From the IMG/VR virus record IMGVR_UViG_3300043105_000137: a DNA stretch of 64,000 nt, one strand, 5' to 3'. Below, in pieces: positions 10,052 to 64,000 of this stretch (position 1 is the first letter of the stretch; every line of letters starts with the position of its first letter). Made by a program: the position numbers and the translations under genes. This DNA is from a virus. Taxonomy: Duplodnaviria; Heunggongvirae; Uroviricota; Caudoviricetes. Below the pieces are notes generated by a model. That model saw only the letters and a list, made by a program, of their open reading frames with translations. It had not been told where the DNA came from and made no database searches.

Positions 10052-10112
10052 CAAATTTTTAGCACTTAAAATTTGGAGGACTGAAAAAAAACCTGTATCT
10101 TTGTAGTGTAAT
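10048..10112 (+). promoter_or_regulatory. Class-1 promoter cassette (Bacteroidota sigma-A type)
   Basis: An upstream element TTAACAAATTTTTAGCACTTAAAATTTGG is followed by TTTG, a 20-nt spacer, TAtcTTTG, then tagtgtaa. Confidence 0.6.
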
Positions 10113-12699: not shown

Positions 12700-12929
12700 T
12701 TATGAGCACTTGGTTAATTATTTTTATCATCTATGTTCTTGGTTGTATAGTTAACTTCTGGTTGACTGGAAAAATCACAAAGAACTATTATAAAACTCGA
12801 CCTGTCCCCTCAAAAGAAACCCTCAGAAAAGACAGATTGATTGACCTTATCCTGTCAATTTCATCTTGGATCGGTGTCATGGCTCTGTTGTTCAGTTCTG
12901 TTTGTTACTATGCAGGAGATGAAGATTAA
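12696..12929 (+). CDS. Small membrane protein
   Basis: Two hydrophobic helices and an ATGA overlap with the upstream gene. Confidence 0.4.
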   Translation: MIMSTWLIIFIIYVLGCIVNFWLTGKITKNYYKTRPVPSKETLRKDRLIDLILSISSWIGVMALLFSSVCYYAGDED

Positions 12930-16545: not shown

Positions 16546-17025
16546 ATGATTGCTGAAAATTATAAAACTCTCGAACAAGCTATCACCATCCTTGAAATTC
16601 TTGGTGTTCCTCACTATGACATGATGGTGTGTGGAAGTATCGCTCTTGATATTTGTGGTTTGTTCCCTGAAAATAGAGACGCCGCCACTGACATAGACAT
16701 TGTTATCCGAGTAAAACATGATGAAATAGAAGCTTATCGTCGACTTATTCTCTGGGTAAACAATATCCAAGAACGTGTAATGGGACAAGAAACATCACCC
16801 GGAAAACCCATGTCACTATATATGAAAGGTGATAAACACATTGATATATGGTTGGTGGACAAAGAAACTACCGACTTTGGAACAGATATTCAATTCCAAT
16901 CAAAGGATCCTGTTGTGACTGGTTTCTGGGTTGAACGACCTATCGACTGTATCAACAAAAAGAAAGAATACAATCGAACAAAAGACATTAAGGATATTCA
17001 ATCAATCGTAAAAAAAATATTATGA
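16546..17025 (+). CDS. Minimal nucleotidyltransferase (pol-beta fold)
   Basis: The segment CGSIALDICGL...DIDIVIRV matches the GS...DxD nucleotidyltransferase signature. Confidence 0.5.
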   Translation: MIAENYKTLEQAITILEILGVPHYDMMVCGSIALDICGLFPENRDAATDIDIVIRVKHDEIEAYRRLILWVNNIQERVMGQETSPGKPMSLYMKGDKHIDIWLVDKETTDFGTDIQFQSKDPVVTGFWVERPIDCINKKKEYNRTKDIKDIQSIVKKIL

Positions 17026-23470: not shown

Positions 23471-23746
23471 ATGACAACCCTTCAACAACTCCGTAAAGCT
23501 CTCCAAACGTCAATCGTTACTTTCACCTACGTCAAAAAGAATGGTGAACTCCGAGAAGCTAAGGGTACCACAGACCCTGAATACATCTCCGAACAAAACT
23601 ACCGCCCACAAGGTGGTTATGGTCCGGGTGAATATGGTTTCAACTCTTACTGGGACATCGACCGTTGTGACTGGCGATGCTACCACCCAAGTTCAGTGGT
23701 GGAAATCAAATCTATTCAACCACTTGAAGAAGAAGCAGAAGTTTAA
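23471..23746 (+). CDS. Hypothetical protein (91 aa)
   Basis: Sits behind a promoter cassette and the conserved leader. Confidence 0.5.
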   Translation: MTTLQQLRKALQTSIVTFTYVKKNGELREAKGTTDPEYISEQNYRPQGGYGPGEYGFNSYWDIDRCDWRCYHPSSVVEIKSIQPLEEEAEV

Positions 23747-23852
23747 ACATTTTAGTCATATCGTTCATTCCCACAGGTGTAATAGTCCTGATCGGTAAAA
23801 GACCTGTGGGAATTTTTTCAAACAAAATCACTAACTATCTAAACAATAAATC

Positions 23853-24377
23853 ATGTCTACAACTTTTACCCAATATACAGTCAAGAAAACATTACCCATC
23901 TTTGGTGAAGACAAACCCCGAAAAGGTGACACATTCTTTTGGGATGACAATACGAAAAGTTATCGTACACGAGATGGTAAAGTTCTCCCAAGTTTTGTAA
24001 ATATAAATGACAAAACCAACTTTACCGAAACCGAACGAACTTATCCTTTTGAATCTGGTTCACACGTTATGTTCACCTACCGAGGGCACAACCAAACCGG
24101 AGTTATTCAAAACCCCATCACTCCTTTTGACACTTATATCAAAATAGATGGTAGTTATGACAATATAGTCCATGTCAAATTGGAGGACATCGAAAAACCT
24201 GTATCTGACTACAAATATTGGTACATCAGTTCGACAGGTCAAATCCGCTCAGCTATCATTGGAATACGTGAATCTGTAGATGAGTTCCGTAAACAATGTG
24301 GTAACTACTTTGACACAAAATCAGAAGCTGAGTATTATATTAAACATCTCCCAAACATTAAAAATTCCGAATCATGA
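23853..24377 (+). CDS. Hypothetical protein with a family-B-like C-terminal module
   Basis: The C-terminus YWYISSTGQIRS...NYFDTKSEAEYYIK resembles the YYYV..G.I....NYF.T.eEA..S.lY module of the 45-58 kb paralog family. Confidence 0.45.
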   Translation: MSTTFTQYTVKKTLPIFGEDKPRKGDTFFWDDNTKSYRTRDGKVLPSFVNINDKTNFTETERTYPFESGSHVMFTYRGHNQTGVIQNPITPFDTYIKIDGSYDNIVHVKLEDIEKPVSDYKYWYISSTGQIRSAIIGIRESVDEFRKQCGNYFDTKSEAEYYIKHLPNIKNSES

Positions 24378-24520
24378 AGGTATCTAAGTTAAAAGAAATT
24401 CTAAATAGTCTTCCTGATGAATGTGAAGATTATGATGTCATCTTTGGTGAATGTGTTATTGGTGACAAAATACGTTCTATCAAGGTTAAAGGAAAGAAAA
24501 TTGTAGTATCTTACGTCTAA
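24374..24520 (+). CDS. Small hypothetical protein (48 aa)
   Basis: An ATGA-overlapped ORF, MKVSKLKEILNSLPDECEDYDVIFGEC... Confidence 0.3.
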   Translation: MKVSKLKEILNSLPDECEDYDVIFGECVIGDKIRSIKVKGKKIVVSYV

Positions 24521-24532
24521 AAATCTGTCATT

Positions 24533-24901
24533 ATGCGAACTTATCAATTTATCAACTCAGTTCAAATCGTAGAAATCAGGTTATTTGGTTCAAAGGAATA
24601 TTCTCCTATTTGTTACCACACAAAACATCATCTCTTTGGTATCTCTTTTCTTCCAGTCATTGGTGGATACTACCATGATGTTTTAACTTCACAAAACATA
24701 CCGGAATCTGAAATAAAAGATTATATTGATGAAGACTTGTATATCCACCCTGACACTAAGTATGTCATGGAGTACCCCAGTGTTGAAATCCACCTCTCCA
24801 ATGATGATGTGATAACTCGACATTTCAAAACATATGAGAGAGCTGATAAGTTCACACATGCCCTTATCAATGAATCTGGAGCTCGATTTTATAAACTCTA
24901 A
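24533..24901 (+). CDS. Hypothetical protein
   Basis: A 122-aa ORF. Confidence 0.4.
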   Translation: MRTYQFINSVQIVEIRLFGSKEYSPICYHTKHHLFGISFLPVIGGYYHDVLTSQNIPESEIKDYIDEDLYIHPDTKYVMEYPSVEIHLSNDDVITRHFKTYERADKFTHALINESGARFYKL

Positions 24902-24947
24902 GTGAGAATCCTGACTGATAATTGGTTAGGATGAAAACCAAAAAAAA

Positions 24948-24967
24948 TTTGTTATATTTAATATGAA
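24948..24967 (+). promoter_or_regulatory. Class-2 conserved upstream motif overlapping a start codon
   Basis: In TTTGTTATATTTAATATGAAT the ATG is the start of the SLT gene. Confidence 0.45.
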
Positions 24968-25472
24968 TCTTCTGCGATTGCAAAGATTTCTATTTATTAT
25001 TTCCCTATTTTTTAATACCGTTTTCACTCTCTATTTTCTCCTTAGACCAACTAACCAAGAAAACACAGTGGAAACGGTTTCTTTAGGTCAAGAAAATAAT
25101 ATAAAGGAATCTGATGACCAAATGTCTGATTGGAATATGTTCACTATGGCTCTGATGAAGGTTGAAAGTGAATATGACTCAACACAGGTATCCTCAAAAG
25201 GTGCAAAAGGTTATTTTCAAATCACTCCAGTCTATGTTAATGAGGTAAATCGAGTTCACAATACAAATTACAGTATGAACGATGTCCTCAGTTTTGACTC
25301 AGCCTATGAAATATTTGACCTTATGCAGAAAGCCCACAACCCGGATTATTCAATGAAAACAGCCATCCAACTACACAATGGTAAATCTTATTGGTATCGG
25401 AAAAGGGTAATGAATGCTTATGAGGATATAAAAAAATATGAAAAATTACGGCGAAAAGTCGTACGAACATAA
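24963..25472 (+). CDS. Lytic transglycosylase (SLT domain), membrane-anchored
   Basis: An N-terminal transmembrane helix is predicted. The segment MKVESEYDSTQVSSKGAKGYFQITP matches the SLT catalytic motif (ES...G.GLMQI). Confidence 0.5.
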   Translation: MNLLRLQRFLFIISLFFNTVFTLYFLLRPTNQENTVETVSLGQENNIKESDDQMSDWNMFTMALMKVESEYDSTQVSSKGAKGYFQITPVYVNEVNRVHNTNYSMNDVLSFDSAYEIFDLMQKAHNPDYSMKTAIQLHNGKSYWYRKRVMNAYEDIKKYEKLRRKVVRT

Positions 25473-25473
25473 A

Positions 25474-25498
25474 TTTGTTTGTTATATTTAATATGTAA
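25474..25498 (+). promoter_or_regulatory. Class-2 conserved upstream motif
   Basis: The sequence TTTGTTTGTTATATTTAATATGTAA lies 58 nt upstream of the OmpA-like gene. Confidence 0.45.
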
Positions 25499-25555
25499 GT
25501 TTTTTAACCGTTAGTTCTTATTAAAACAAAATTTAATAAAAGGAAAAAAGATTTT

Positions 25556-26674
25556 ATGAAAAAAATTATTATGATGTTGGTGATGGTATTTGCCTCACTT
25601 TCAATGTTTGCCCAACAAACCACAGTTGAGGGTTCTAAATTCTTCGATAACACTTATGTTGGTGTTTCTGTTGGTGGACAAGTTGGTATGAATGATATTA
25701 TTGGTCATTCAAATTGGACAGTAGCTCCTGATGCTAATCTCTATCTTGGTAAATGGTTCACTCCTATCTTTGGTATGGAACTTAATGGTGAAGCAGTATT
25801 CCATGATGGTTTCTCTACACGAAACAAATTCGTAGACGCAAGTTATGTTGGACTGAACGCCCGTCTAAATCTCAACAATATCTTTCACAAATATCGTGGT
25901 GAAAGTGACCGAGTAGAAGTAATCCCCTTCGTTGGTGTTGGTTGGCTTCATGCTTATGGTAATGGTACAGTAGAAGATAAAGGTAATGTTCCTACCGTTC
26001 AAGCAGTTGGTCGTAATGCCTTCGCCACTAAAATGGGTATTGACTTGGCCTTCAATCTTGGTGAAACAAAAGCTTGGGTAATTGATGTTCGACCCACTGT
26101 AATGTATGCCCTTTCAGGTTCTAATTACACTGGTGAACCTTACTACAATGTAAACAAAGCACGTGTTGGTCTTGAAGTTGGTTTCACATATAAGTTTGGA
26201 CATAAAAATTCAAAGGGTGTAACAACTCACAACTTCACAAAAGCTTATACAGTTCGTGAATATGATGAAATGGTAGAACGTCTATCTAATGTAACTCCTG
26301 ATACTGTTGTAGTTACTAATGATGTTGTTCGTGAAGTTGTTCGTGAAGTACCCGTAACAAGTTATGTAGTATCATCTCCTTACTTTACAAAGGGTGAATA
26401 TACTTTGGATCCCACTTCAAATAAAGTCCTTGACACTCTCGCAACTCAAATTAAGAGTGACAACAAAGAATATGTAATCACTGGTTGGGCATCTATCGAA
26501 GGTGAGGAAACTTATAACTCAACACTCTCACTCCATCGTGCAGAAGCTGTTCGTAATGCACTTGTAGAACGTGGTGTACCTACTACTCGTCTGTCTGTGG
26601 TTGCTGGTGGTGCTACTCAGCAATTTGGTTCTGACTACGAAAGTAATCGTACGGTAACTGTTACAAGTAAATAA
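25556..26674 (+). CDS. OmpA-family outer-membrane protein
   Basis: A signal peptide is predicted. The N-terminal region looks beta-barrel-like. The C-terminus LSLHRAEAVRNALVERGVPTTRLSVVAGGATQ...NRTVTV matches the OmpA peptidoglycan-binding signature. Confidence 0.6.
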   Translation: MKKIIMMLVMVFASLSMFAQQTTVEGSKFFDNTYVGVSVGGQVGMNDIIGHSNWTVAPDANLYLGKWFTPIFGMELNGEAVFHDGFSTRNKFVDASYVGLNARLNLNNIFHKYRGESDRVEVIPFVGVGWLHAYGNGTVEDKGNVPTVQAVGRNAFATKMGIDLAFNLGETKAWVIDVRPTVMYALSGSNYTGEPYYNVNKARVGLEVGFTYKFGHKNSKGVTTHNFTKAYTVREYDEMVERLSNVTPDTVVVTNDVVREVVREVPVTSYVVSSPYFTKGEYTLDPTSNKVLDTLATQIKSDNKEYVITGWASIEGEETYNSTLSLHRAEAVRNALVERGVPTTRLSVVAGGATQQFGSDYESNRTVTVTSK

Positions 26675-26695
26675 ATTAATTAAACATAAATAACC

Positions 26696-26723
26696 TTGGT
26701 GGTGATGTAAAAGTCACCACCAA
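26696..26723 (+). terminator. Hairpin terminator
   Basis: A perfect 10-bp stem ttggtggtga/tcaccaccaa is followed by an A/T-rich tract. Confidence 0.5.
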
Positions 26724-26759
26724 TAAATAAAATAAAAATTCAATAATAACTAAAAAATC

Positions 26760-26939
26760 ATGAAGAAAATTCTTATCGCGATTGTTGCAGTGTTTGCTAT
26801 GTCATGTGTTGCTTGTACAAATGGTGCAGGTGCTGGTTCTGAAACCTCTACTGACTCTACCGAAGTCGTTGTTGACTCTCTTGGTGTAGATTCACTTGCT
26901 GTTGACACAGTAGCCGTTGATTCACTTGGTATCTAAAAC
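26760..26939 (+). CDS. Small secreted lipoprotein (59 aa)
   Basis: The sequence MKKILIAIVAVFAMSCVAC... has a lipobox, followed by repeated (V/A)DSL motifs. It falls below the track cutoff. Confidence 0.4.
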
Positions 26940-26977
26940 TTACAATACAGTTAATTAGTAAACAGAACTAAACGGTC

Positions 26978-27013
26978 GGGACAAAGTAATTTACTTTGCC
27001 CCATTTTTTTTTG
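26978..27013 (+). terminator. Rho-independent terminator
   Basis: The stem gggacaaagtaa/ttactttgcccc is followed by T9. Confidence 0.6.
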
Positions 27014-27033
27014 TTATTTTTTTTAGTAAAATA

Positions 27034-27073
27034 TTTGGTGGTTTCAATTTTTTCTTGTATCTTTGTAGTGTAA
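27034..27073 (+). promoter_or_regulatory. Class-1 promoter (core only)
   Basis: The core reads ATTTGG...TAtcTTTGtagtgtaa. Confidence 0.55.
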
Positions 27074-27090
27074 TTCAAAACAAACAATAT

Positions 27091-27537
27091 ATGAGAACAA
27101 GAAAAGACATAATCAAAGAAGTTGATGATTTGGTCAACTATTGGAAAGATAAACACGAACTCTTTCATGGTGGTTGTATGTTCGCCGCATCTGAAATCGC
27201 TCGTCATCTCGAAGAACTGGGTATCCCATATAACATTATTGTCTGGGCACCTCGTTTGAAATCAATCAAAACCTCAACACTTAGTGAAATCGTTTATGAT
27301 GGTCTTTGCTATCATGTTGGTATCTCTGTTCGTGTTGGTAATAAAAATGTCGTCATTGGTGGTGAAATAAAATACACTGTTATGTTTGGTCGAGGATTAG
27401 CCAGAATAAAAAGACAATCCACCGCCAAAGAACTACGAAAGGTATATCGTGATGGTGACTGGAATCAAAGTTGGAACACGAAATATAATCGTACGTTCAA
27501 AAAAGACTTGAATAAAATTTTTGAATCAAATATTTAA
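27091..27537 (+). CDS. Hypothetical protein, paralog of 31971-32429
   Basis: The start was moved to the ATG at 27091, downstream of the promoter. It shares the F(D/H)GGC, IIGG and W-N-x-x-W motifs with 31971. Confidence 0.5.
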   Translation: MRTRKDIIKEVDDLVNYWKDKHELFHGGCMFAASEIARHLEELGIPYNIIVWAPRLKSIKTSTLSEIVYDGLCYHVGISVRVGNKNVVIGGEIKYTVMFGRGLARIKRQSTAKELRKVYRDGDWNQSWNTKYNRTFKKDLNKIFESNI

Positions 27538-27543
27538 TTAACT

Positions 27544-28479
27544 ATGGGATGTTTTAATTCATCTGGGTGTATCTCACAAATCCCCATTCAAGAAGGTCAA
27601 AGGGTCGCTGGTATCCTGTGTAAAATTCAATCTGACCTTGACTTTAGTGACGCTATTCTCTGGAATGGTTGTTACTCACTAATACCTATGTGCCCAATTA
27701 TCTATGGTGTTTATAATGACTATGGTTATCTCACTCCTGATGAGGGTATTCTAACTGTTAAAATATTAGAACAGTTTTTTGATGAAGACATTGATGGTGT
27801 TCTATGTTACTTTAACAATCTCACTTATTTTGGTGGTGATGAATGGAAAAGTGAACCGAGTCCGGAAACACAAAAGATGATGAAACTTAGAGATAATGAT
27901 GAAATCCGTCACAAACGATTTTACAACATCCCCAAAAAAGTAAATCTAAACAACCCTTACAATCACTTCTGTCTTGTCTTGGAACATGAGGATGTAGTAA
28001 AAAAGATTATAGACTCTCAGGACTTCAATTACTTCGCTTGGAATTATGGTATCAAAAACAAAACCAAAGCGACATCTTGGAGTGAAATGTATGATGAACA
28101 ACTTGAAATATTTCGTGAGGATGGTCTTGATGACTTTTTCTCAGATGCCGAAAATGACGAAAGAGTTAACATCATAAGAATCCTTAGTTTAGGTTATCCT
28201 ATTTTCCCAGTTCGTCAACAATACCTCAATGTTGGTTTATATAATGATGTCAAAGGCCACCAATATTTTATGGATTTTTTGCGTCATTATCCATCTAATT
28301 TTTGTTATATTTTTGATGAGAGACTTAAAGATGAATACCTCGACACAATCAGGTTTTATCTCGGTCTGACCACTTATCAACTTAAAATGTATCTACGTCG
28401 TGATAGTGCTGGTCAAAATGATGACAGAGAGTTCTTCAAGTCACTCATCGAAACTTATTCAAAGATACTTAATAAATGA
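27544..28479 (+). CDS. Hypothetical protein
   Basis: A 311-aa ORF. Confidence 0.45.
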   Translation: MGCFNSSGCISQIPIQEGQRVAGILCKIQSDLDFSDAILWNGCYSLIPMCPIIYGVYNDYGYLTPDEGILTVKILEQFFDEDIDGVLCYFNNLTYFGGDEWKSEPSPETQKMMKLRDNDEIRHKRFYNIPKKVNLNNPYNHFCLVLEHEDVVKKIIDSQDFNYFAWNYGIKNKTKATSWSEMYDEQLEIFREDGLDDFFSDAENDERVNIIRILSLGYPIFPVRQQYLNVGLYNDVKGHQYFMDFLRHYPSNFCYIFDERLKDEYLDTIRFYLGLTTYQLKMYLRRDSAGQNDDREFFKSLIETYSKILNK

Positions 28480-30880: not shown

Positions 30881-30901
30881 TTTGTTATATTTAATATGTA
30901 T
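30881..30901 (+). promoter_or_regulatory. Class-2 conserved motif
   Basis: The sequence TTTGTTATATTTAATATGTAT faces an ORF-free 590-nt region. Confidence 0.45.
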
Positions 30902-31490
30902 CCAATTAAAGTGAATGAACTTTAAGAGTGTATACGATAGGTTGAAGTACCGCCGATTTTAAGCCTGTGGACTACCGAAAGTCAAGGTAGAATGAATCAG
31001 GAAGTTAATAGACAACACCTAAATTGTTTTCTTTTAACATACTATTTACTTGGGGAATGTGTCTTAACCTCAAGTTGGCTCGCGGAGAAATCTTATTGCA
31101 GTCTGTGATTGATAACTGAGGTTTTGAGGATGTGGGAAGTTGGAGGGGTATCCAACGAAAGACACAAATGGAAAAGATGAGACATAATACATCATCGTTG
31201 GGAAATGGGGATGTATTTATAATTTTGGGACTTCAAATTTAATTGTTGAAGTGAGGACTTTTTACTTATATTGATTGATTGATTAGATTATAGTTAATTT
31301 TTATTTTTTTTTTGAGAACGTAGAAATTCAATAAGTGAAGTCCCGAAAATCCTAAACAAGTTTTCACTTCACAACAAAAGGGGAAAATAGATGGTGATTA
31401 TTAATGGTTGTTGTGAAACAACCATTAATTTTTTTGAAAAAGCCGTTGGGAGAAACAATCCCAACACTACATATACAAAATAAACGTTAT
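30902..31490 (+). ncRNA. Candidate non-coding transcript, function unknown
   Basis: There is no ORF longer than 60 aa on the + strand. Two class-2 motifs lie just upstream and multiple hairpins (for example acttcaa...ttgaagt, gtgaagt...acttcac) are present. Confidence 0.25.
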
Positions 31491-33520: not shown

Positions 33521-35431
33521 ATGGCTTTTCTTCAAAACAAATTTATAGAAGATTATAAAACCGCCTGTCAAATACAAAAACTATATAAACAAATATATAG
33601 AATTTGTTATAAGATGGGCAACTATTATGTACCAAAAGGTAGTAGAATTGTTACTGTCACTTCAGATGATGGTACAACTCGACAAGTATATAGACCCGTA
33701 TATAACAATAGAATAATTGAGACTGATGGGTGGTATGATGGTAATGAAGATGTAAAAATTCACCCAAATGGTGTTAAATCAATATCTTTAACTCAAAATA
33801 CATATCTTACAATATCACAAATTGAAGATTTATATCTGTATAATAATATTATTCTTGCTAGTTATGATAGTACCACACAAAATGTTCCACAATATTTAAA
33901 AACAGGTGAGCTAAATGAGAAATTCAAATCTATATCTGTCGAAATACAATCATTATTATTCACATTGATTGATTCCGAAGCTCTAACGCCTTTTAGAACA
34001 TCATACACATATTATCCCGTAATGGATGCCAGATACCCCCATGTTCACTGGGCTTATGTTGCGATGAAAAATAATATGAATAAGTCACAAAGACGAATAT
34101 TCTATAACACTTGTATCGGTAAAACACTTCAAGAATATAAACGATTTACCACACACACATTTCCCAGAATATATAAACAACCTTGGGATAGTGGAACTTG
34201 GACACATACAGAGGATGAAACAAATTTGACCGATAGAGATAGAGTAAAAAAGAAAATGTATAAACAATGGTCAAGAACAGATTCAAGTGCTAACTATCTA
34301 ATTCTTAAAGCTGAGGAAGTATTAGAGAAATATGGTTGGCCTGAAGATGACCTTATTAAAACAAGTGAAGTCCCTGTTAGAATTGTTTTCTTTACAGGTG
34401 CGGGTATGAGTGAGGAAAATGGTATCTATACATATAAGAGTGAGGAAGAAGGTAATTTGTGGTATGAGAACCCTATTGATATGATAATGACAAAATCCGG
34501 GTGGAATTCTGACCCTGTTTTCTTGAATAGATTTTTTAATGAATTGAGAGCCAGTTACATTAATAAAAATACCATGCATCTTGGTTATCAAATTATAAAT
34601 AAATTCATTAATGATACTATTGGTGAAGGAACAAATAAACATAATACCTTTGATGTGAAAATCATTACTCAGAATATTGATGACCTACATGACAAAGCAT
34701 TATGTGACTATTTTTTTAGATATTATAACACGTCATATGAACCCCCGATATATGGAATTAGTGATAGTGGTTTTTATAAATATATGAAATTTACCAATAT
34801 TGGAAAATCTATGACAGCGAAAGAATTCATAGATGAACACCTTATACATCTTCATGGTAATTTAATGATTATGTGCAATGAAGATGATGTCGATAATACA
34901 AACTACCATGCTGACTTATCATATTGGACAAAAAGTGTTTCCGAAGATGATAACACAACAACAACAACATTGGCAGGAGTTTCAAAATATAAAAAAGTAA
35001 ATGGTAAGTATGTACAATCCGGAGTTGTAACAATAGACACAACAGAAAGTCATAAAGATTGTGGATTACCAACAGATGCTAAGGTTTGGACTTATTTCCC
35101 AAAAGTCAAACAGACATCAAATGGTAATGCAAAGATGAGACCTTGGATTACTCTATATCACGAAACCGTAAATAGAATGACAGAAGCTATCGAATTGGTT
35201 AGGTCTTGTGACATATTCGTAATGGTGGGAACTTCATTAGAAACTTTCCCCGCAGCCAATTTAATGACTTATGTTCCATCGACTACACCTATCATATATA
35301 TAGACCCAAATCCAAATACTGAAATGATAGAAAAACTAAAGATGACCAGTAGAACAGAAATAGTTAAAACATATGCACCAAATGGTCTTTCTCATGTGTT
35401 AGATGTATATCTTATGGGTTTGAAAATATAG
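33521..35431 (+). CDS. SIR2 (sirtuin-like) domain protein fused to an N-terminal domain of about 280 aa with no recognisable motifs
   Basis: Four sirtuin motifs appear in order: FFTGAGMSEENGI (GAGxS), TQNIDDLH (QNIDxLH), HLHGN (catalytic His) and VMVGTSLETFPAANL (GTSL..P). The canonical Zn-binding cysteine pairs are absent. Confidence 0.7.
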   Translation: MAFLQNKFIEDYKTACQIQKLYKQIYRICYKMGNYYVPKGSRIVTVTSDDGTTRQVYRPVYNNRIIETDGWYDGNEDVKIHPNGVKSISLTQNTYLTISQIEDLYLYNNIILASYDSTTQNVPQYLKTGELNEKFKSISVEIQSLLFTLIDSEALTPFRTSYTYYPVMDARYPHVHWAYVAMKNNMNKSQRRIFYNTCIGKTLQEYKRFTTHTFPRIYKQPWDSGTWTHTEDETNLTDRDRVKKKMYKQWSRTDSSANYLILKAEEVLEKYGWPEDDLIKTSEVPVRIVFFTGAGMSEENGIYTYKSEEEGNLWYENPIDMIMTKSGWNSDPVFLNRFFNELRASYINKNTMHLGYQIINKFINDTIGEGTNKHNTFDVKIITQNIDDLHDKALCDYFFRYYNTSYEPPIYGISDSGFYKYMKFTNIGKSMTAKEFIDEHLIHLHGNLMIMCNEDDVDNTNYHADLSYWTKSVSEDDNTTTTTLAGVSKYKKVNGKYVQSGVVTIDTTESHKDCGLPTDAKVWTYFPKVKQTSNGNAKMRPWITLYHETVNRMTEAIELVRSCDIFVMVGTSLETFPAANLMTYVPSTTPIIYIDPNPNTEMIEKLKMTSRTEIVKTYAPNGLSHVLDVYLMGLKI

Positions 35432-37379: not shown

Positions 37380-37452
37380 AACTCCGTAGCTCAGTTGGTA
37401 GAGCGTCTGGTTAAACACTGGAAGGTCGTGGGTTCGAGTCCCATCGGAGTTA
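37380..37452 (+). tRNA. tRNA with a non-canonical anticodon loop UUAAACA (nominal anticodon AAA with C37)
   Basis: The acceptor stem aactccg/cggagtt, the D-arm gctcagttggtagagc and the T-arm gtggg-ttcgagt-cccat are all canonical. The anticodon stem tctgg/ctgga contains two G-U pairs. Confidence 0.55.
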
Positions 37453-37471
37453 CTTTTTCATTTGATGCTTT

Positions 37472-37776: not shown

Positions 37777-37851
37777 GACTTCGTACGTCTCAGCTGGTAG
37801 AGCGTCTGGTTAAACACTGGAAGGTCGTGGGTTCGATCCCCACCGAAGTCA
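37777..37851 (+). tRNA. Second tRNA with the UUAAACA anticodon loop, with an irregular D-arm
   Basis: The acceptor stem gacttcg/cgaagtc pairs perfectly. The anticodon arm is identical to the one at 37380. The D-region carries 3 extra nt (tacgtctcagctggtagagc) and the T-arm is gtggg-ttcgatc-cccac. Confidence 0.45.
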
Positions 37852-38813: not shown

Positions 38814-39448
38814 AAGATATAAATTTTAAGTTAGTCTTTTCAGGAAAGTTATCTTCTTGGACTGACGTTTTTAATATAATCGAACAAGCTGAAGATAACC
38901 ATGATGTTCGTTTCCTAATTAAAGTGGATGGAACAACATATAGTTATTTTTGGTGGAATGAATATACTAAATCTTGGAATATGTTTTTTTCGTATTTCAA
39001 GAATTATGAACTGAAATCAACAACAAAATGGCCTTATTATTGGTGGCCTGATGCCGTAGATGTTTATATGGTAACTGACCCGACGATTTTTATTCGTGAA
39101 CTTCAAAACGATTTACGACATGAGTCTTTCCAAAAATTAACTTATCCTGACTCTAAACTGAGTGTAATGGTGGATATGATTAAACCTATACTTGGCTCAG
39201 TGGTTGAAGTTAAAAATGAGAAAGTATTGTTGTTGGGATTGTCTTATACATTTGATGACTATTATTACTACTACCTGACACAAGATAATAAAATCGGTTT
39301 CACATCTTCGGTAGGAAAAATAGTTCAACATTATGACCAAACACGAGCTGAGTTATTGAAGGAGGACATTGAAACAAAACAACTTGTCCAGAACCTTAGA
39401 TGGGAACATTTCAAAGACGCTCCGGAAATAGAAATAATACACGTTTAA
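38810..39448 (+). CDS. Hypothetical protein
   Basis: A 212-aa Trp/Tyr-rich ORF. Confidence 0.45.
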   Translation: MKDINFKLVFSGKLSSWTDVFNIIEQAEDNHDVRFLIKVDGTTYSYFWWNEYTKSWNMFFSYFKNYELKSTTKWPYYWWPDAVDVYMVTDPTIFIRELQNDLRHESFQKLTYPDSKLSVMVDMIKPILGSVVEVKNEKVLLLGLSYTFDDYYYYYLTQDNKIGFTSSVGKIVQHYDQTRAELLKEDIETKQLVQNLRWEHFKDAPEIEIIHV

Positions 39449-39450
39449 TT

Positions 39451-40311
39451 ATGATAACATTTGTTTTAATTATCTTAGCAATTTTAATACTTCCTTATAT
39501 CCTTCATTTTTTGGGATTGGAAATATCAGAGTATTACAGAAAGAAATATAATGATCGTGAACTGGTCAAGGAATTCAAAAACTATCGAGGTTATATTGGA
39601 TTTTATAACAACCCCAGTCTTATGATTTATTATACACATCATGGAGTTTATACCGACTGTAAATGGGCTCACAAAATTCTAATCTATTTTGGTGGTTGTG
39701 TCTTGTGTTGGCAATGGGGTAATGACTTCAATGAGAATACAGGTCTTGACTATGCTTCTATTTCATACTCTTGGGGTTGGGATTCTATCAATGGTGAAAA
39801 ATGGTGGACTGATTTTAGATGGCGTAACCGTACTTTTTCTAACCCTTTCAAAGCAACCCACTATGATAACTCTTGGATAATCGACTTTAATAATAAGACG
39901 TTAGTTGAGAAAAGACAATTAGATGACATTAATGATTATCCTCTTGTTGATGTTAGATTGAATACCACCTACCGTATGAAGAATGACACAGTTCAAGATG
40001 TTTCCCGTATCCGTTGGTGGATTGAACAATGGGAATGGTCAGTGCCCTTCCTCAATAAAATAGGTCTTGGTAATTATTGTAAGAAAATAAATGTTGACCT
40101 CGAATTCCAATCTGACACTGAACTTGGCGTCAATCGGGATTCTTGGAAGGGTGGTGTAATGGGTGCCACTGTTAGAATTAGTGATGAACCCGAACTTCTC
40201 AAACTTTATCTCGACATCGTTAAACATCAGAAATTGGAGAAGATACCTCTACTCAGAACGGCTATCAAAAACCGTATCGACTATTTTATGAATGAAGAAA
40301 AAAAATATTGA
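39451..40311 (+). CDS. Membrane-anchored hypothetical protein
   Basis: The start was chosen at MITFVLIILAILILPYILHFLG, a transmembrane helix. The track start at 39400 overlaps the upstream gene. Confidence 0.4.
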   Translation: MITFVLIILAILILPYILHFLGLEISEYYRKKYNDRELVKEFKNYRGYIGFYNNPSLMIYYTHHGVYTDCKWAHKILIYFGGCVLCWQWGNDFNENTGLDYASISYSWGWDSINGEKWWTDFRWRNRTFSNPFKATHYDNSWIIDFNNKTLVEKRQLDDINDYPLVDVRLNTTYRMKNDTVQDVSRIRWWIEQWEWSVPFLNKIGLGNYCKKINVDLEFQSDTELGVNRDSWKGGVMGATVRISDEPELLKLYLDIVKHQKLEKIPLLRTAIKNRIDYFMNEEKKY

Positions 40312-56772: not shown

Positions 56773-57885
56773 ATGACGAAAAATTTCATTGAATCTGCAC
56801 AAGCAGTACATGGTGACAAGTATGACTATTCTAAAGTCAATTTTGTAAACACTAAAACTAAAGTATGTATCATCTGCCCTGAACATGGTGAATTTTGGAT
56901 GACACCGCAGAACCACTTGGAAGGCCTTGGTTGTCCAGCATGTCGAGAAAATCAGATCAACCTCGACAACCAAAAGGAACACACTGAGTTTATTCGCAAG
57001 ACCGAGTTGGAAATGGACAAATCCCAACCTCGTTTCGCTGACAAGATGACAACAACTAAGTTCATTAACCAAGCTCGACAAGTACATGGTGACAAGTATG
57101 ACTATTCCTTGGTAGAGTATGTAAATTCAAAAACCAAGGTATGTATCATCTGCCCTGAACATGGTGAGTTCTGGATGAGCCCGATAAACCACTTGAAAGG
57201 ACTTGGTTGTCCGGACTGTTGGCATAATAAACACCAAATGACAACAGATGAGTTTATTGAAGAGGCACGACGACTGCATGGTAAAAAGTATGACTATTCT
57301 AAAACCAAGTACGTAAACGCAAGAACTAAGGTATGTATCATCTGTCCAAAACATGGTGAATTTTGGATGACACCTAAAGACCACCTCACTGGAAAAGGTT
57401 GTGCTGTATGTCGAAACGAGAAACACAAACTGACACAGGATGAGTTTATTCGCCGAGCCAAAGAAATTCATGGTGACAAATTCGACTACTCTAAGGTGAA
57501 ATATGTAAACTCAAACACCAAGGTATGTATCATCTGTCCAGAGAATGGTGCGTTCTGGTCAACCCCACGACACCACTTGAATGGTTACACTGGACAATCA
57601 GTATCAAACCGAGCAATCAAAAGGTTCATCAATAACGCTGAGAAAGACTTCGACGAGAAACAGTCAGATGAAAACCCCATCCAAGCTGAGCGAGATCGTA
57701 AAATAAGTCAAGAGTATTTCATCAACATGGCCAAAGAAATTCATGGTGACAAATATGACTACTCTAAGGTGAACTATGTAGACATGAAAACTGATGTATG
57801 TATTGTTGATGTCGAACATGGAGAATTTTATCAATCACCTAAAGACCACCTTATGGGGAAAACGATTTCATTCGCACGAAATTAA
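56773..57885 (+). CDS. Protein with six tandem zinc-ribbon (DUF4379-like) repeats
   Basis: The unit HGDKYDYSKV.YVN..TKVCIICPEHGEFW..P..HL.G.GCP.C recurs six times. Confidence 0.5.
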   Translation: MTKNFIESAQAVHGDKYDYSKVNFVNTKTKVCIICPEHGEFWMTPQNHLEGLGCPACRENQINLDNQKEHTEFIRKTELEMDKSQPRFADKMTTTKFINQARQVHGDKYDYSLVEYVNSKTKVCIICPEHGEFWMSPINHLKGLGCPDCWHNKHQMTTDEFIEEARRLHGKKYDYSKTKYVNARTKVCIICPKHGEFWMTPKDHLTGKGCAVCRNEKHKLTQDEFIRRAKEIHGDKFDYSKVKYVNSNTKVCIICPENGAFWSTPRHHLNGYTGQSVSNRAIKRFINNAEKDFDEKQSDENPIQAERDRKISQEYFINMAKEIHGDKYDYSKVNYVDMKTDVCIVDVEHGEFYQSPKDHLMGKTISFARN

Positions 57886-58996: not shown

Positions 58997-59329
58997 ATGA
59001 AACGCATGTTCTTAGGTCTTTCAATGATGGCCGCTTATAATCAACATATCATCAACGGTAATCTTGGTATCGCAGTTCTCATCCTTGGTGGTTTCCTTTT
59101 CGTCATGGGTTTCAGAAAAGTCAGCGAAGCCTACCGTAAATTCAAAAGCAACAAAGACAACGTTGTTTATGAAAATGGTACTACTACCTACAACATCGGT
59201 CAAGACAACTACTACAATTTCATCGCTACTGGTAATGTCAAAATCAATGACAATGTATATACCGACTTTAATGTAGTTGAAACTCCCCTCGAAAACGGTA
59301 CAACCAAAGTGGAACTCTTCCGTAAATAA
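58997..59329 (+). CDS. Small membrane protein
   Basis: A hydrophobic N-terminal segment is present. The gene sits behind tandem promoters and the conserved leader. Confidence 0.5.
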   Translation: MKRMFLGLSMMAAYNQHIINGNLGIAVLILGGFLFVMGFRKVSEAYRKFKSNKDNVVYENGTTTYNIGQDNYYNFIATGNVKINDNVYTDFNVVETPLENGTTKVELFRK

Positions 59330-59360
59330 TCGTCACGAAAATCGTCTAAAAAAATAAACA

Positions 59361-59705
59361 ATGGACAGAACTAATAACCACTTCAAGGTCGGAGACAAAG
59401 TAAAAGTCAAAGACCTATCATCTCTCTCTAAAGTTTGTCCCGGATATGATGAACCTCTGATTATCTGTGACCCTGATGAAGAAGATGAATTATGGTATCC
59501 TCCTTACTCCGACTTCGCTGGTAAAACAGTTGAAATAATTGAAGCTCGGTGGATCAGTGGCGAATCCAGAGACAACAAAGGTAATCCACTCGAAGAAGGT
59601 TACTGGGTTTATCTAATCAATGAAGATGACGGTATCCTTAACTGGTATGACCCCTATTTTGAACAAGAAGTCGTTACGAAAAATAATCGCTCAAAAAAGA
59701 AATAA
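59361..59705 (+). CDS. Hypothetical protein
   Basis: A 114-aa ORF. Confidence 0.45.
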   Translation: MDRTNNHFKVGDKVKVKDLSSLSKVCPGYDEPLIICDPDEEDELWYPPYSDFAGKTVEIIEARWISGESRDNKGNPLEEGYWVYLINEDDGILNWYDPYFEQEVVTKNNRSKKK

Positions 59706-59707
59706 TC

Positions 59708-60070
59708 ATGAATAAAATAGCTACCTCAATTCAACAATCTGAGTTTCTCCTATCTAAAGGTGTCCCTGTTGAAACTGCTGATATGTTCTACTCAGTAACA
59801 GGTAAATATCTCTTGGCTAAACAGGATTACTCGATGGGACCTGATGATATTCCCGCTTGGTCTCTTTCCGCCCTGATGGAATTACACAACGGAATCAGTA
59901 TTTCTTCAGAACCGAATTGGGAACAAATTTATGAAGGTTATGTGGACTACAGTGACCCGAAAACCACTGACGCCGACTTCCAAAAATGTAACGGTCTGAA
60001 TTTCGTTGATGTCGTCTTTAACTGCATCCGTTATCTTCTCGACAATAACATCCCACTGTCCAACATTTAA
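59708..60070 (+). CDS. Hypothetical protein
   Basis: A 120-aa ORF. Confidence 0.45.
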   Translation: MNKIATSIQQSEFLLSKGVPVETADMFYSVTGKYLLAKQDYSMGPDDIPAWSLSALMELHNGISISSEPNWEQIYEGYVDYSDPKTTDADFQKCNGLNFVDVVFNCIRYLLDNNIPLSNI

Positions 60071-60081
60071 CTTTCAGTGAT

Positions 60082-60369
60082 ATGGAAAACATTGATATCT
60101 CTCCATCACTCGTAGAGGTAAATGGTCACAAGTTCTATCCATACGATACCAAATCATGTCCAATCTGTGGCAATGATATGGAACTAATGGATTGTTATGA
60201 TGAATGTCTGTCCGGCCCAAGGAATAGATTTCAAGGTACTTCTTCTCCTTGTCTAACGTCGGCCAAAGTAACTAACCAACCACTTTATCAATTTTTCACT
60301 TATCGTTGCCCTCATTGTGTATCAGAAATAAAATATAAACTAAATGGAAACAGCTTCTACGACATCTAA
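60082..60369 (+). CDS. Zinc-ribbon hypothetical protein
   Basis: The cysteine pairs CPICGN...CPHC are present. Confidence 0.4.
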   Translation: MENIDISPSLVEVNGHKFYPYDTKSCPICGNDMELMDCYDECLSGPRNRFQGTSSPCLTSAKVTNQPLYQFFTYRCPHCVSEIKYKLNGNSFYDI

Positions 60370-60799
60370 TTTTTCCAACACCCCTAAACAATTCGACCTC
60401 ATCATTACGAATACGAAAGGCGAACATGGGAAAATTATGAATGTTGTCACTAAAAGATATAAAGGAGGATACCTATTCCTTTATGAATGTGTCTTCCTCG
60501 ATAAGTTTGGGTTCACATATAATGACACCCTCAATTATAATCAATTCAGACTGTTCGACCCGTTCTTGGTTAACTTCTACTCCAAGGATAAATTCAAAAA
60601 ACTCGAACAGACTCTATATGAAAATGGTTTAGTATCTCTCGATGACTGCATACTGTTCAAACCATCCCCTATTACTACTTCTGCTTCTACCGACGATCCA
60701 GTAAATCTAACCCCGGAAACAGACGCATGTAATGAACCGGAAACTAATTCAGGCATCACGATTAATATCAACATCGAAAACCTGACCATCAACCTTTAG
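60344..60799 (+). CDS. Hypothetical protein
   Basis: A 151-aa ORF. Confidence 0.4.
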   Translation: METASTTSNFSNTPKQFDLIITNTKGEHGKIMNVVTKRYKGGYLFLYECVFLDKFGFTYNDTLNYNQFRLFDPFLVNFYSKDKFKKLEQTLYENGLVSLDDCILFKPSPITTSASTDDPVNLTPETDACNEPETNSGITININIENLTINL

Positions 60800-61099
60800 T
60801 TTCCATCTGTGGTCTTTTCTTCGCACGACTTTTCGCCAAGTTTATGACCACCCTTATTTTGACCATCATTACATATGCTGACATAATCAGACCTTAAACT
60901 AATCATTACACAGTATGCTATTATTGTAAAATGTGCTAACCTAACTTTCTGAATATGTCACACAATCCCTTGGATTTCTTCTGAGGGATTGTTTTTTTGT
61001 ATTCTGACATTTTGTTACTATTTCCTGATTTTTACTTTCATTTTGACACCTCCTGAAGAAAAACTCAGGGGATTTTTTATAAGCATGTAAGTAAATCCC

Positions 61100-61830
61100 C
61101 TCTTTTACTTTCATTTTGTCATCTTAACCCAGTCCCCAGACTCAGCTGACCAGAACTCAACCCATATAACTGTCCATCCCCCTTCCTCAACTTAGCCCTC
61201 TTTACCATTCCTCTCCCTTTCCCTCACGATACGAATGACGAAACTACTACTCATCCACCCCCATATCTACCATACCGGATATATTAACCCCCAGATATAC
61301 ACCCCAGACTTCCAGATACCAGATTCCTCAACCCAGTAAATAACCCCCAGATACATATTAACCCTATTTCCTCTATTTTACCCTTTTTACTATACGAACG
61401 ATTTTACGATTTTTTCCATTTTTACCCCTTTTTTACTTAGCTAATTTTAAGACACATTTTTTCACTATTTTCCATGTTTTTCCCCTTTCTTACTTTTTAC
61501 CTCTTTTTACACTTTTTACCTCTTTTTTACTTAGCTTATTTTATTCCCCCTTTTTACCATATTTTACACTTTTTTGGAATTCTTGGAAATATGTGGAAAT
61601 CTGTGAAAACTACATTTCCGGCCTGTCCTGAGTTGGAGGGGTGGTTTTTCAAAGGAGTAAAATAAGCTAATTTCTGAGGGGGTAAAATAAGCTAATTTTG
61701 GGGTATTTTTAGGATATGTAAAAAAGACTAATTTTGGGGTATTTTTGGCCTATTTTGGGAGGGGGGTAAAATTAGCTAAAATTAGGGTTTTTTAGGGGGT
61801 ATTCAGAATCACTCAAAGAAGGCTAGAACT
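61100..61830. repeat. Repeat-rich, strand-skew-switching non-coding region: candidate replication origin or genome terminus
   Basis: The left part is C/T-rich with repeated AACCCCCAGATA(c/t)A units. At least 12 TTTTTAC(C) iterons follow. After about 61560 the + strand becomes G-rich, with repeated GTAAAATAAGCTAATTT and CTAATTTTGGGGTATTTTT units. Confidence 0.4.
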
Positions 61831-62027
61831 TGGCTCAGTAAATAAAAATAAATAAAAAATAAATTAAAATAAATTAAAAATAAATCGAAACAAATCTGAC
61901 AAAAATGAGTTAAAAAATTGGGTATATATTTTTGAATTTAATTAGCTCAGTATAAATAGATTACAAAAAAATTCGATAATAAAATATATAGATAAAAAAG
62001 ACATAATTTTACATTAATATTACAGAA

Positions 62028-62762
62028 ATGTTAAAAAATAATATGGGAATAAAAAATTGGGTTGAAAAAAGTGGGGGGGATGTCCGTTTTTGTTATGTTT
62101 TAAGTATGAATAGATTTTATTTTGATTTAAGGAAGGAAAACATCTTGAAGGAAGTAAGGGATGTTTTGAGTGAATTAGATCCTCGTTGTTTTGATTTTTT
62201 AGAATTTGACAAGCATTTTCTTAGGATATTGGATATGAATTGGAAAGAAGAAACAGATGTCAAATATAATAAAGATAATGAGAGTTATGAAGATAGTTAT
62301 GGTAATATGTCAGGGTATGAATATTACTGTAAGAATGCACCCTATATTGTAATTGTTTTATACAGTTATTATGGGGGTAATTTTTATGATTGGGGATATG
62401 GACAACGAGATAGGGAATATACTGAATGTCCTGAGTTAGCTGAGTATAGGGAACACATGAATAGTGATTGGCGAAGTATAATAGGAGGACATTTAGGTGG
62501 AGACACTGGATGTAGAGATAGAAAGGGAGAATTGATAGAGGTTGGAGATTTGGTATTTGAATATAATGTCAATAAATTACATAGAGTAGATATAGGGTTA
62601 AATGGTGAGGTTGTCGCAATAGAGATGATGACTGATGATGACTTATACTTAACGGGAATATGTAGTGATTGTATTATAGTAAAGAAATGGGATGAAATAG
62701 GCCAAGTAAAGAACGCAAGAGTAGATGAAGAAAGTTGTGAAAAAATTAGAGCTGGAATTTAA
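62028..62762 (+). CDS. Hypothetical protein (C-depleted coding block)
   Basis: A 244-aa ORF. The + strand is strongly purine-rich with very little C. Confidence 0.45.
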   Translation: MLKNNMGIKNWVEKSGGDVRFCYVLSMNRFYFDLRKENILKEVRDVLSELDPRCFDFLEFDKHFLRILDMNWKEETDVKYNKDNESYEDSYGNMSGYEYYCKNAPYIVIVLYSYYGGNFYDWGYGQRDREYTECPELAEYREHMNSDWRSIIGGHLGGDTGCRDRKGELIEVGDLVFEYNVNKLHRVDIGLNGEVVAIEMMTDDDLYLTGICSDCIIVKKWDEIGQVKNARVDEESCEKIRAGI

Positions 62763-63471
62763 GAGGTGGGGAAATTTGATTCCGCAGTATCATAAGGAGT
62801 ATGGTACAGGATTTCATAGTGCCCCTGTTGAGTGGGGTATTTATGCTTTTCCTCATGGTTTTGTAGAGAGTTTTTTATTAGGTGGAGTTGGGAGTGGAAA
62901 TATTGTGAATGGTCGACGGAAGTTTCTGAAAGATGAGAATGGGAAGAAGTTAAAGATACGACAAGTTGATTTATTTCATGAGTGGTTTGATGATAAGAAT
63001 CAGTATCACAAGGAATGGCGAGGAAAGTACAAGAAGTTATTTAAGGGGATAGATCCATATGATGTTAGTAGGTTTTGTTTAGATGAAGATACACAAACCC
63101 TAGGATGGGAGATGGGGAAGTCTTATGTTGAGAGTAGTTGGGTAATAGAGAATGAGCCGAGGACATTTAAGTATAGTGGAAATATATGGTGTCATTTTGT
63201 TGAAGTGGCGAAGCGGAGTGAGATATTGGCTGAGAGTGGAGGATGGATATTAGTAGATATACGTACCTATAAGAAATTATTGAAGAAATATTGTGACCGG
63301 ATAAAGTATGACAGTCACATATCAATAAATTACAAGTGGTATCGAGAGGCTGGGGTAGAATACAAGCCGAGAGGAAGGATTGGAGGATATCCTTTAAGTA
63401 ATATCAGTAAGGATTGGTTTGAGGTATTCATAGAAGATGTAACGAATAATAAAAAAAGGAAAAAGAGATGA
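62725..63471 (+). CDS. Hypothetical protein
   Basis: A 248-aa ORF that overlaps the upstream gene by 38 nt. Confidence 0.4.
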   Translation: MKKVVKKLELEFKRWGNLIPQYHKEYGTGFHSAPVEWGIYAFPHGFVESFLLGGVGSGNIVNGRRKFLKDENGKKLKIRQVDLFHEWFDDKNQYHKEWRGKYKKLFKGIDPYDVSRFCLDEDTQTLGWEMGKSYVESSWVIENEPRTFKYSGNIWCHFVEVAKRSEILAESGGWILVDIRTYKKLLKKYCDRIKYDSHISINYKWYREAGVEYKPRGRIGGYPLSNISKDWFEVFIEDVTNNKKRKKR

Positions 63472-64000
63472 AGATAAAGATAAAGATAAAGGAAGATTTG
63501 CGAGTATTGAAAGGTGGAACTGAATATGAGTTTGATTTTGAAGGGAAGAGTGAGCCTTTCATATATATTACTGGAAAGAATGGGTGTGGAAAGAGTACGT
63601 TGATAAATTGTGTTCGAGTTCGTCAGTGTGATAATGAAGGAGAAGACAGGAGTGGTTGGGGAGCGAAGTTAAGTTATGGTGATTTGTTTTCTGAGGATTT
63701 TGAGGGGAAGTCGGAAGTAGAGACGGATTTTGAGAAGATATATTTCTTATCGAGTGAATTTGATGACACTAAGAGTTTGAATAACTGTGCGAGTGCTGAG
63801 AGTTATGTAGAGTATGGTGGATATATGAATCGGCACAAGAGTAATGGGGAGAGTGAGTTAAATTTGATAGGGAAATGGTTAGTGGACAACAGGGACAAAT
63901 TTAATGACAAGACTTTGATTATCTTTGATGAGATAGACAAAGGATTATCGTTAGAATGGACTGTTGGGGTAGTGAATATGATGAACAAGTTGCATGAGCA
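63468..64000 (+). CDS. P-loop ATPase (AAA_15/AAA_23 or SMC-N-like), 3' partial
   Basis: Walker A is ITGKNGCGKST and Walker B LIIFDEID. The ORF runs off the end of the window. Confidence 0.5.
   Translation, partial: MKIKIKIKEDLRVLKGGTEYEFDFEGKSEPFIYITGKNGCGKSTLINCVRVRQCDNEGEDRSGWGAKLSYGDLFSEDFEGKSEVETDFEKIYFLSSEFDDTKSLNNCASAESYVEYGGYMNRHKSNGESELNLIGKWLVDNRDKFNDKTLIIFDEIDKGLSLEWTVGVVNMMNKLHE

Follow-up and report, generated by a model that had tools for sequence, protein, structure and literature searches.

A dyad-symmetric repeat region as a candidate replication origin and operon control region in an uncultured megaphage

The non-coding region at positions 60,800 to 62,027 of a 64,000-nucleotide (nt) stretch of IMG/VR record IMGVR_UViG_3300043105_000137 (Caudoviricetes; hereafter the window, to which coordinates and strands refer unless another contig is named) was analyzed. 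Judged from its sequence, the site appears to be a dyad-symmetric hub of candidate protein-binding repeats between two co-directional operons of an uncultured gut/rumen megaphage of ~352 kb. It is read tentatively, with a confidence somewhat short of even, as an outward-firing lytic origin of replication (binding-site arrays, an unwinding element, and possible assistance from transcription) combined with an early-type operon control region. The layout points to an origin because insulating terminators stand beside phased, outward-facing arrays about a dyad and an adjacent unwinding element. A purely regulatory region is the main rival and is nearly as likely. The original prediction had offered an origin or a genome end; the origin is kept as the best single reading (inverted phased arrays, unstable duplex, and sign of the skew), and the genome end is not favoured.

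Sequence organization of the site

No credible open reading frame (ORF), Rfam match, or tRNA was found in 60,800 to 62,027, in agreement with the earlier description of a 1.2-kb non-coding region. Two small ORFs of 57 amino acids (aa; - strand) and 63 aa (+ strand) both lie within repeat DNA, and the 63-aa ORF carries three non-synonymous changes between strains. Repeat counts were compared with those in 1000 dinucleotide-preserving shuffles of the same local interval, and the C-rich repeats, iterons, and G-rich direct repeats noted previously all exceeded this composition-matched chance level. TTTTAC occurs 14 times in the 1.2 kb (2.6 ± 1.5 expected), which is 14 of the 32 same-orientation copies in 73 kb. 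Eleven copies fall in 61,376 to 61,567 (3.7 ± 1.5 in shuffles) and 8 of these 11 are TTTTTAC, so that the iteron cluster was recognized correctly and the count of at least 12 TTTTTAC(C) units was slightly too high. Four copies each were found of CCCCAGA (0.23 expected) and, on the right side, of GTAAAA (0.33 expected). Palindromic T(T/A)AGCTAA boxes were found five times (0.06 expected), and five of the six such boxes in 73 kb sit here. Longer repeats are TAACCCCCAGATA, present twice (61,285 and 61,341), GTAAAATAAGCTAATTT, present twice with additional degenerate copies, and CTAATTTTGGGGTATTTTT, present twice and nowhere else in 73 kb. Within 73 kb, the repeats are essentially unique to the site.

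The T/C-rich repeats on the left and the G-rich repeats on the right are inverted copies of one motif set, with the central inverted repeat at 61,607 as their mirror point. The left arm (61,376 to 61,567, - strand) holds eleven GTAAAA(A) units, read as TTTTAC on the + strand, with T-tracts helically phased at ~9.5 to 10 bp; such phasing resembles that of bent origin DNA. At the dyad centre (61,584 to 61,619), tandem copies of TGGAAAT(A/C)TG and an inverted repeat, GGAAAT-N13-ATTTCC, with its centre at 61,607 coincide with the change of skew sign, and the central hairpin fold is thermodynamically unexceptional. The right arm (61,654 to 61,801, + strand) consists of four G-rich units GGGGTAAAAT(A/T)AGCTAATTTTGGGGTATTTTT, with boxes at 61,663, 61,688, and 61,772. 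Inverted matches between left and right are 34 nt at 76% (I1), 30 nt at 77% (I2), 18 nt at 89% (I9), and 13 nt at 100% (I24). In I24, the palindromic outer left box TTAGCTAA (61,437 to 61,444) pairs with 61,772 to 61,779 at full complementarity over the 13 nt; in I9, the inner left box TTAGCTTA (61,531 to 61,538) is the reverse complement of TAAGCTAA. The outer boxes, centred at 61,440.5 and 61,775.5, mirror about 61,608, 1 bp off the centre of the central inverted repeat, and the inner boxes mirror about 61,600 to 61,613. The dyad spans ~340 bp of a site of >900 bp, and on each side the strand that reads outward is rich in purines and in G, a composition that would favour an RNA-DNA hybrid. 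At least three helically phased protein-binding repeats are expected of an iteron-type origin; the eleven GTAAAA(A) units and five T(T/A)AGCTAA boxes exceed this number, in an arrangement that is inverted about the centre and not purely direct.

An adjacent AT-rich unwinding element, likewise expected of an origin, has a candidate in the segment at 61,843 to 62,042, which adjoins the right array and includes the leader of ORF1, the first ORF right of the site (start at 62,028, + strand). It has 16 to 21% GC, phased A-tracts, and a run of (TAAATAAAAA)n at 61,839 to 61,885. This segment is the least stable duplex of the 64 kb, at -1.02 kcal/mol per bp against a mean of -1.233 (standard deviation [SD] 0.048; 4.4 SD), and ranked first for instability at both the 100-bp and the 200-bp scale. 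The Bacteroidota -7 promoter box is matched twice by TAATTTTG, at 61,693 and 61,729, both times inside the G-rich units of the right arm and accompanied by imperfect -33 elements only.

On the left, the site begins with two strong intrinsic terminators that close the upstream + strand operon. Terminator 1 (60,962 to 60,992, + strand) has a 13-bp stem followed by T7. A terminator-2 module (61,013 to 61,124, + strand) contains terminator 2 itself (61,050 to 61,071) and two copies of TTTTACTTTCATTTTG. The fold of 60,950 to 61,085 has a z score of -3.3, and none of 200 shuffles folded as well. A C-rich, G-poor block follows (61,100 to 61,380; 34 to 38 C and 6 to 8 G per 100 nt), which contains the modules CCAGACTCAGCTGACCAGAAC (61,136), CACGATACGAATGACGAAAC (61,225 to 61,244), and TAACCCCCAGATA, the last in two copies. 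The block corresponds to a single unit of the mosaic array found in a sister strain.

Strand composition and the downstream operon

GC skew in 200-nt windows was -0.67 to -0.69 at 61,100 to 61,499, +0.55 at 61,600 to 61,799, and +0.5 to +0.7 at 61,900 to 64,000, crossing zero at ~61,600, so that the reported switch, from -0.67 to about +0.6, was reproduced. In 300-nt windows, a skew below -0.4 was found in this stretch only of the 64 kb (window mean +0.12, SD 0.17). The order, C over G and then G over C, is the sign of an origin and not of a replication terminus. The flip in the core is in large part due to the inverted repeat architecture. A separate G-rich, C-poor non-coding stretch of ~700 nt (skew 0.69) was observed right after a terminator at 12,900 to 13,620 of L137, an unrelated 170.7-kb phage-like contig whose host uses Shine-Dalgarno sites; strand-asymmetric non-coding blocks may recur in large phages.

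The operon to the right was read to its end using L001, a contig that extends the window. It starts at 62,028, occupies the window to 64,000, and runs on the + strand to 69,676 (7.6 kb; at least 13 ORFs); the part within the window has a GC skew at third codon positions (GC3 skew) of +0.45 to +0.73. Except for a stand-alone ABC-type ATPase, its ORFs had no family match. The change in codon composition reported for the far side was seen as a C content of 5 to 12% at all three codon positions of the first ORFs. Over the operon, C makes up 9 to 10% of codon positions 1 and 2 and 6 to 9% of position 3. In two-fold codons, C/(C+T) is 0.15 to 0.21 against a background of 0.34, and G/(A+G) is 0.40 to 0.50 against 0.36. 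ORF2 (AlphaFold model pLDDT 56.6) has a skew of 0.56 and a third-position C content (C3) of 0.05, while its homologues elsewhere (58% and 41% identity) have a skew of 0.17 and a C3 of 0.15 to 0.18; it follows that the operon lost its C in situ and within this lineage. On the outward-reading strand, the exchanges resemble C to T together with A to G, a pattern that would be expected of a strand that is often single-stranded. The most unusual feature of the locus is this extreme depletion of C, which is local and affects an entire operon.

Genes just left of the site have a GC3 skew of -0.36 to -0.76. Their C/A-ending codon class recurs in gene clusters at 23.4 to 28.5 kb, and the weight first given to an antisymmetric GC3 gradient across the site was withdrawn on finding the same codon class there. 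Codon classes in the window are discrete and track transcription units, with C/A-ending codons at 23,471 to 28,479 and 58,997 to 60,799 and T/G-ending, C-poor codons at 62,028 to 64,000. The phage tRNAs Phe(AAA) and Lys(CTT) fit the T/G-ending class of the C-poor operon. C-poor ORFs at 15.0 to 15.6 kb were considered as an equivalent case and rejected, their C content being explained by acidic composition.

Canonical promoters of the phage, 17 in number and nearly identical, lie on the + strand and share a 32-nt consensus, TTTGG(A/T)..GT...AAAAA.C..GTA(A/T)CTTTG, of the Bacteroidota -33/-7 type with a conserved spacer. They are located at 10,072, 15,662, 22,900, 23,002, 23,393, 27,034, 36,252, 36,353, 36,454, 44,193, 48,880, 51,773, 57,930, 58,819, and 58,919 of the window and at 16,959 and 19,966 of L001. 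Two subclasses were distinguished, often in tandem 100 nt apart, and the uniformity suggests a phage-specific factor. No canonical promoter was found between 58,919 and 69,683, and on passing the latter promoter GC3 skew decreases from 0.33 to 0.07.

Strain variation and contig breaks

A sister haplotype, recovered on three contigs (L014, L015, and L016), is 0.83% divergent on the right flank, and the core is ~97% identical between the two strains. In the sister strain, the C-rich block is 2.15 kb longer. The extra DNA (L014, 6,260 to 8,282; 37% C, 9% G) is a mosaic of ~6 to 8 shuffled units built from eight recurring modules. Among the modules are CACGATACGAATRACGAAAC, CCAGACTCAGCTGACCAGAAC, and an element of 40 nt that contains a CCTGTT/AACAGG stem; the extra DNA showed neither a coding signal nor an Rfam match. 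The terminator-2 module is present there in two copies, which flank this array as a 126-nt direct repeat. In the window, copy 1 passes into copy 2 at a crossover within GGGGATTTTT (61,068 to 61,077); the short array of the window reflects either a true deletion or a shortcut taken by the assembler. No equivalent site was found at four distant homologue loci (L010, L012, L137, and L138). Two broader scans were discarded: the one Spirosomataceae metagenome-assembled genome matched in GTDB genomes by a 21-mer from the G-rich unit was a chance match with no similarity beyond the pattern, and a metagenome DNA scan with TTTTACTTTCATTTTG returned 120 unrelated loci, the pattern being too unspecific.

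Several contigs start or end near the site, in 60,863 to 61,135 (L002 starts at 61,068, L008 ends at 61,097, and L004 starts at 61,135), and the nearby breaks fall at four different coordinates. Those clustered at 61,068 to 61,135 coincide with the 126-nt repeat crossover beside the strain-variable array, and the clustering is therefore attributed to the repeat and the array polymorphism. At least five assemblies from different samples, including a contig of 351,598 bp, read through the site with the same flanks. A shared end was found elsewhere: contigs of 69,576, 50,020, and 351,598 bp, from three samples, end within ~90 bp of each other at window-equivalent ~111,000 to 111,090, ~49 kb to the right, which suggests a true genome end or an unresolvable repeat at that position. 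A second contig of nearly the same size as the 351,598-bp one has 351,880 bp. Independent assemblies that end at one base without read-through, as a terminus or junction would give, were not found at the site, and the suggestion of an assembly junction or genome end here is not supported.

Origin model

In the model preferred here, the two terminators, and perhaps also the C-rich array, would block incoming transcription. A phage or host protein would occupy the palindromic boxes, T(T/A)AGCTAA, together with the phased GTAAAA units, all oriented outward on either side of 61,607, and would bend the DNA, upon which the adjacent 200-bp AT-rich segment could melt. Transcripts from the G-rich units toward ORF1 may aid through an RNA-DNA hybrid, as at T4 oriF/oriG, and synthesis would then proceed outward. 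We infer binding, bending, melting, transcription start, R-loop formation, and replication initiation from the sequence.

Parts of this arrangement have counterparts in known systems. T4 origins tend to coincide with shifts in strand composition (PMC3016281). The site resembles T4 oriF/oriG in that its candidate -7 boxes at 61,693 and 61,729 precede the least stable duplex; however, T4 origins are ~100 bp long, lack both iteron arrays and a dyad, and rely on promoters that depend on MotA, whereas the site covers >900 bp, is mirror-symmetric, includes a strain-variable C-rich array, and has candidate promoters only. With the iteron origins (phage lambda ori, P1 oriR, and theta plasmids) it shares multiple helically phased short repeats that would bend DNA and an AT-rich neighbour. 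Those origins have direct 17- to 22-bp sites, usually located within the initiator gene or next to it, and frequently DnaA boxes as well, whereas the arrays here are inverted about a centre and made of a composite unit, with no adjacent initiator gene and no DnaA boxes. Herpesvirus oriLyt regions are repeat-rich and non-coding on the kilobase scale, and RNA-DNA hybrids from transcripts are needed for initiation there (PMC12599619). The likeness to oriLyt of EBV, HCMV, and KSHV lies in the kilobase-scale non-coding DNA with complex direct and inverted repeats and strand-asymmetric blocks; the host domain and the proteins differ, and the likeness is one of architecture only.

Several observations weigh against an origin. 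No initiator (Rep, O-like, or AAA+), primase, or helicase gene was found adjacent to the site (five ORFs on the left and 13 on the right), although ORFans could hide a novel initiator. No DnaA box TTATCCACA with at most one mismatch was found in 60,800 to 62,027, and window-wide counts were those expected by chance. The skew is local, with a positive background on both sides and a cumulative curve that shows only a local dip over the available 84 kb, and the core flip follows automatically from inverted repeats. The negative GC3 skew on the left is not unique, given the same codon class at 23.4 to 28.5 kb, and the apparent antisymmetry of the coding DNA may be coincidental. The GC3 step at the 69,683 promoter fits a property of the transcription unit better than a gradient with distance from an origin. 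Strain differences on the right, 43 A/G against 22 C/T in a small, unpolarised sample of two haplotypes only, match the G:C site ratio and give no sign of current C hypermutability. Finally, the architecture is absent near the ORF2 homologues of more distant relatives.

No origin, terminus, or early-promoter class has been experimentally defined for uncultured Bacteroidota megaphages of this size. The site is a compact and testable candidate, with defined motifs, a dyad centre, an unwinding element, a strain-variable array, and an operon of extreme composition. If it is an origin, it would serve as an anchor for replication-rate estimates and genome maps in this phage group, and it would represent a new combination, in which a composite-repeat dyad and an unwinding element stand with a variable mosaic array rich in C and no initiator is recognizable. 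Should the C depletion turn out to be an adaptation or the footprint of mutation, it would reveal a local force of unusual strength on the composition of a phage genome.

Alternative explanations

A purely transcriptional control region with no origin function is possible, though doubtful taken singly. The terminators, operator-like palindromes, bent DNA, and non-canonical promoters would then serve the probably early 7.6-kb ORFan operon, the skew flip would be a by-product of inverted operator arrays, and the C-poor strand would reflect the codon and amino-acid class of the operon. Such a region would account for the two terminators, for the two TAATTTTG -7-type boxes within the G-rich units, for the 17 near-identical canonical promoters that flank a gap (58,919 to 69,683) with none, and for the downward step of GC3 skew at the next canonical promoter. 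An ORFan block is also what is expected of early host-takeover genes, and discrete codon classes are seen among the other gene clusters of the window, too. On the other hand, no full -33/-7 promoter was found in the site in either direction, and there are no - strand genes on the left to regulate. The eleven phased GTAAAA units, the C-rich array of 0.3 to 2.4 kb, and the ~340-bp dyad far exceed the other operon boundaries of this phage. A C content of 9 to 10% at codon positions 1 and 2 shifts protein composition, which would be costly for codon preference alone.

A more specific form of the origin, or an adaptive C-poor strand, is unlikely. Prolonged strand displacement in both directions, through R- or D-loops, would have kept the neighbouring outward-reading strands single-stranded for long enough to impose a mitochondrion-like deamination skew of ±0.6 to 0.7 and to reshape the proteins of the 7.6-kb operon; alternatively, a nearly C-free coding strand would protect the earliest transcripts or the DNA from a C-requiring host activity, for which the C-rich array would be a trap. 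Vertebrate mitochondrial strand-displacement replication leaves a graded synonymous-site skew of 0.6 to 0.7, with C-to-T plus A-to-G changes on one strand. The operon resembles this in its graded skew of 0.6 to 0.7 at synonymous sites and in the C-to-T plus A-to-G signature, but the pattern occupies only ~8 kb of the 352 kb of this phage and in part tracks the transcription unit. To our knowledge, neither a strand-displacement skew origin nor a C-evasion operon has been described for a phage.

Rather improbable is that the genome physically ends or is packaged here, or that a long terminal repeat has its inner edge at the site, similar to the T5 injection stop; the C-poor ORFan operon would then be an early region that enters first and is terminally redundant. 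The site resembles the 1.66-kb iss region at the boundary of the T5 left terminal repeat (bioRxiv 10.1101/866236). Genes are co-directional over at least 84 kb, which makes the gap between the terminators and the ORFan operon a natural start of the map. The contigs that start or end at 60,863 to 61,135 would fit, and a collapsed direct terminal repeat would still give read-through contigs. However, the breaks lie exactly at the 126-nt repeat crossover and are explained without a terminus, at least five assemblies read through, and the shared end of three contigs at ~111,000 to 111,090 is likelier to be a real terminus or an unresolved repeat. No terminase gene was found within the 84 kb examined. 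The T5 region contains eight paired DnaA boxes and sits at an established terminal-repeat edge, whereas the site has no DnaA boxes and accordingly none paired in large inverted repeats, as a T5-type injection stop would have; a skew as extreme as that seen here is not reported for T5.

Very unlikely is a Rho-based insulator, in which the C-rich, G-poor + strand RNA would load Rho on read-through and the G-rich, C-poor operon would resist Rho or C-dependent RNases. Rho prefers C-rich, G-poor RNA. The + strand has 34 to 38% C and 6 to 9% G over 0.3 to 2.4 kb directly after two intrinsic terminators, the downstream mRNA has 6 to 10% C, and opposite compositions on one transcribed strand would be explained without - strand transcription. 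This leaves the dyad symmetry, the palindromic boxes, the phased repeats, and the conserved G-containing motifs of the array unexplained, and 2.4 kb is far beyond what Rho loading needs.

Least credible is an invertible promoter segment (inverton) bounded by inverted repeats, or a - strand non-coding RNA or decoy array: Bacteroidota often have invertons, inverted repeats of 13 to 34 nt flank segments of 106 to 317 bp, and the array is made of conserved modules, but no recombinase gene was found nearby, the central segment has one orientation in all contigs that cover it, no Rfam match was found on either strand of the window or L014, and no - strand promoter was found.

Phage and host context

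The site is placed by exact-protein matches at ~299 to 303 kb of the 351,598-bp contig (Ga0376472_0000002), the longest of the metagenomic contigs on which the window was found. A near-identity search of 60 to 64 kb and an ORF2 protein search against GenBank phages gave no matches, and a search of IMG/VR with both flanking ORFs gave no relatives. Relatives come from rumen runs, and the Dda-like helicase of the phage is at most 34% identical to those of crAss-like phages. A Shine-Dalgarno-like motif precedes only 2 of 70 ORFs in the window, where upstream regions are A-rich, and its 15 + strand promoters are of the Bacteroidota type (TTTG, 17 to 23 nt, TAnnTTTG), nearly identical, and built on a common extended consensus; on these grounds the host is most probably a member of the Bacteroidota.

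The window consists of small + strand genes in a run at ~34% GC. Genes with an identity include those for the Dda-like helicase, an adenine methylase, a Thg1-like enzyme, Sir2, an Acb3-like anti-CBASS protein, and a GH108 lysozyme. A 370-aa protein with five DUF723-type zinc-ribbon repeats (56,773 to 57,885) matches homing/HNH endonuclease PHROGs, and its gene is the stretch most divergent between strains left of the site. A non-coding stretch of ~550 nt at 30,900 to 31,450, with GC above that of its surroundings and no Rfam match, is preceded by two copies of TTTGTTATATTTAATATGTA and may be an undescribed RNA gene. Six to seven tRNAs are present, the seventh being seen by the Rfam scan only; among the tRNAs at 37,380 to 37,453 and 37,777 to 37,851 is a tRNA-Phe with the unusual anticodon AAA. 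The Acb3-like anti-CBASS protein and a 636-aa Sir2-domain protein (39,400 to 40,311 and 33,521 to 35,431) point to counter-defence or NAD-related cargo.

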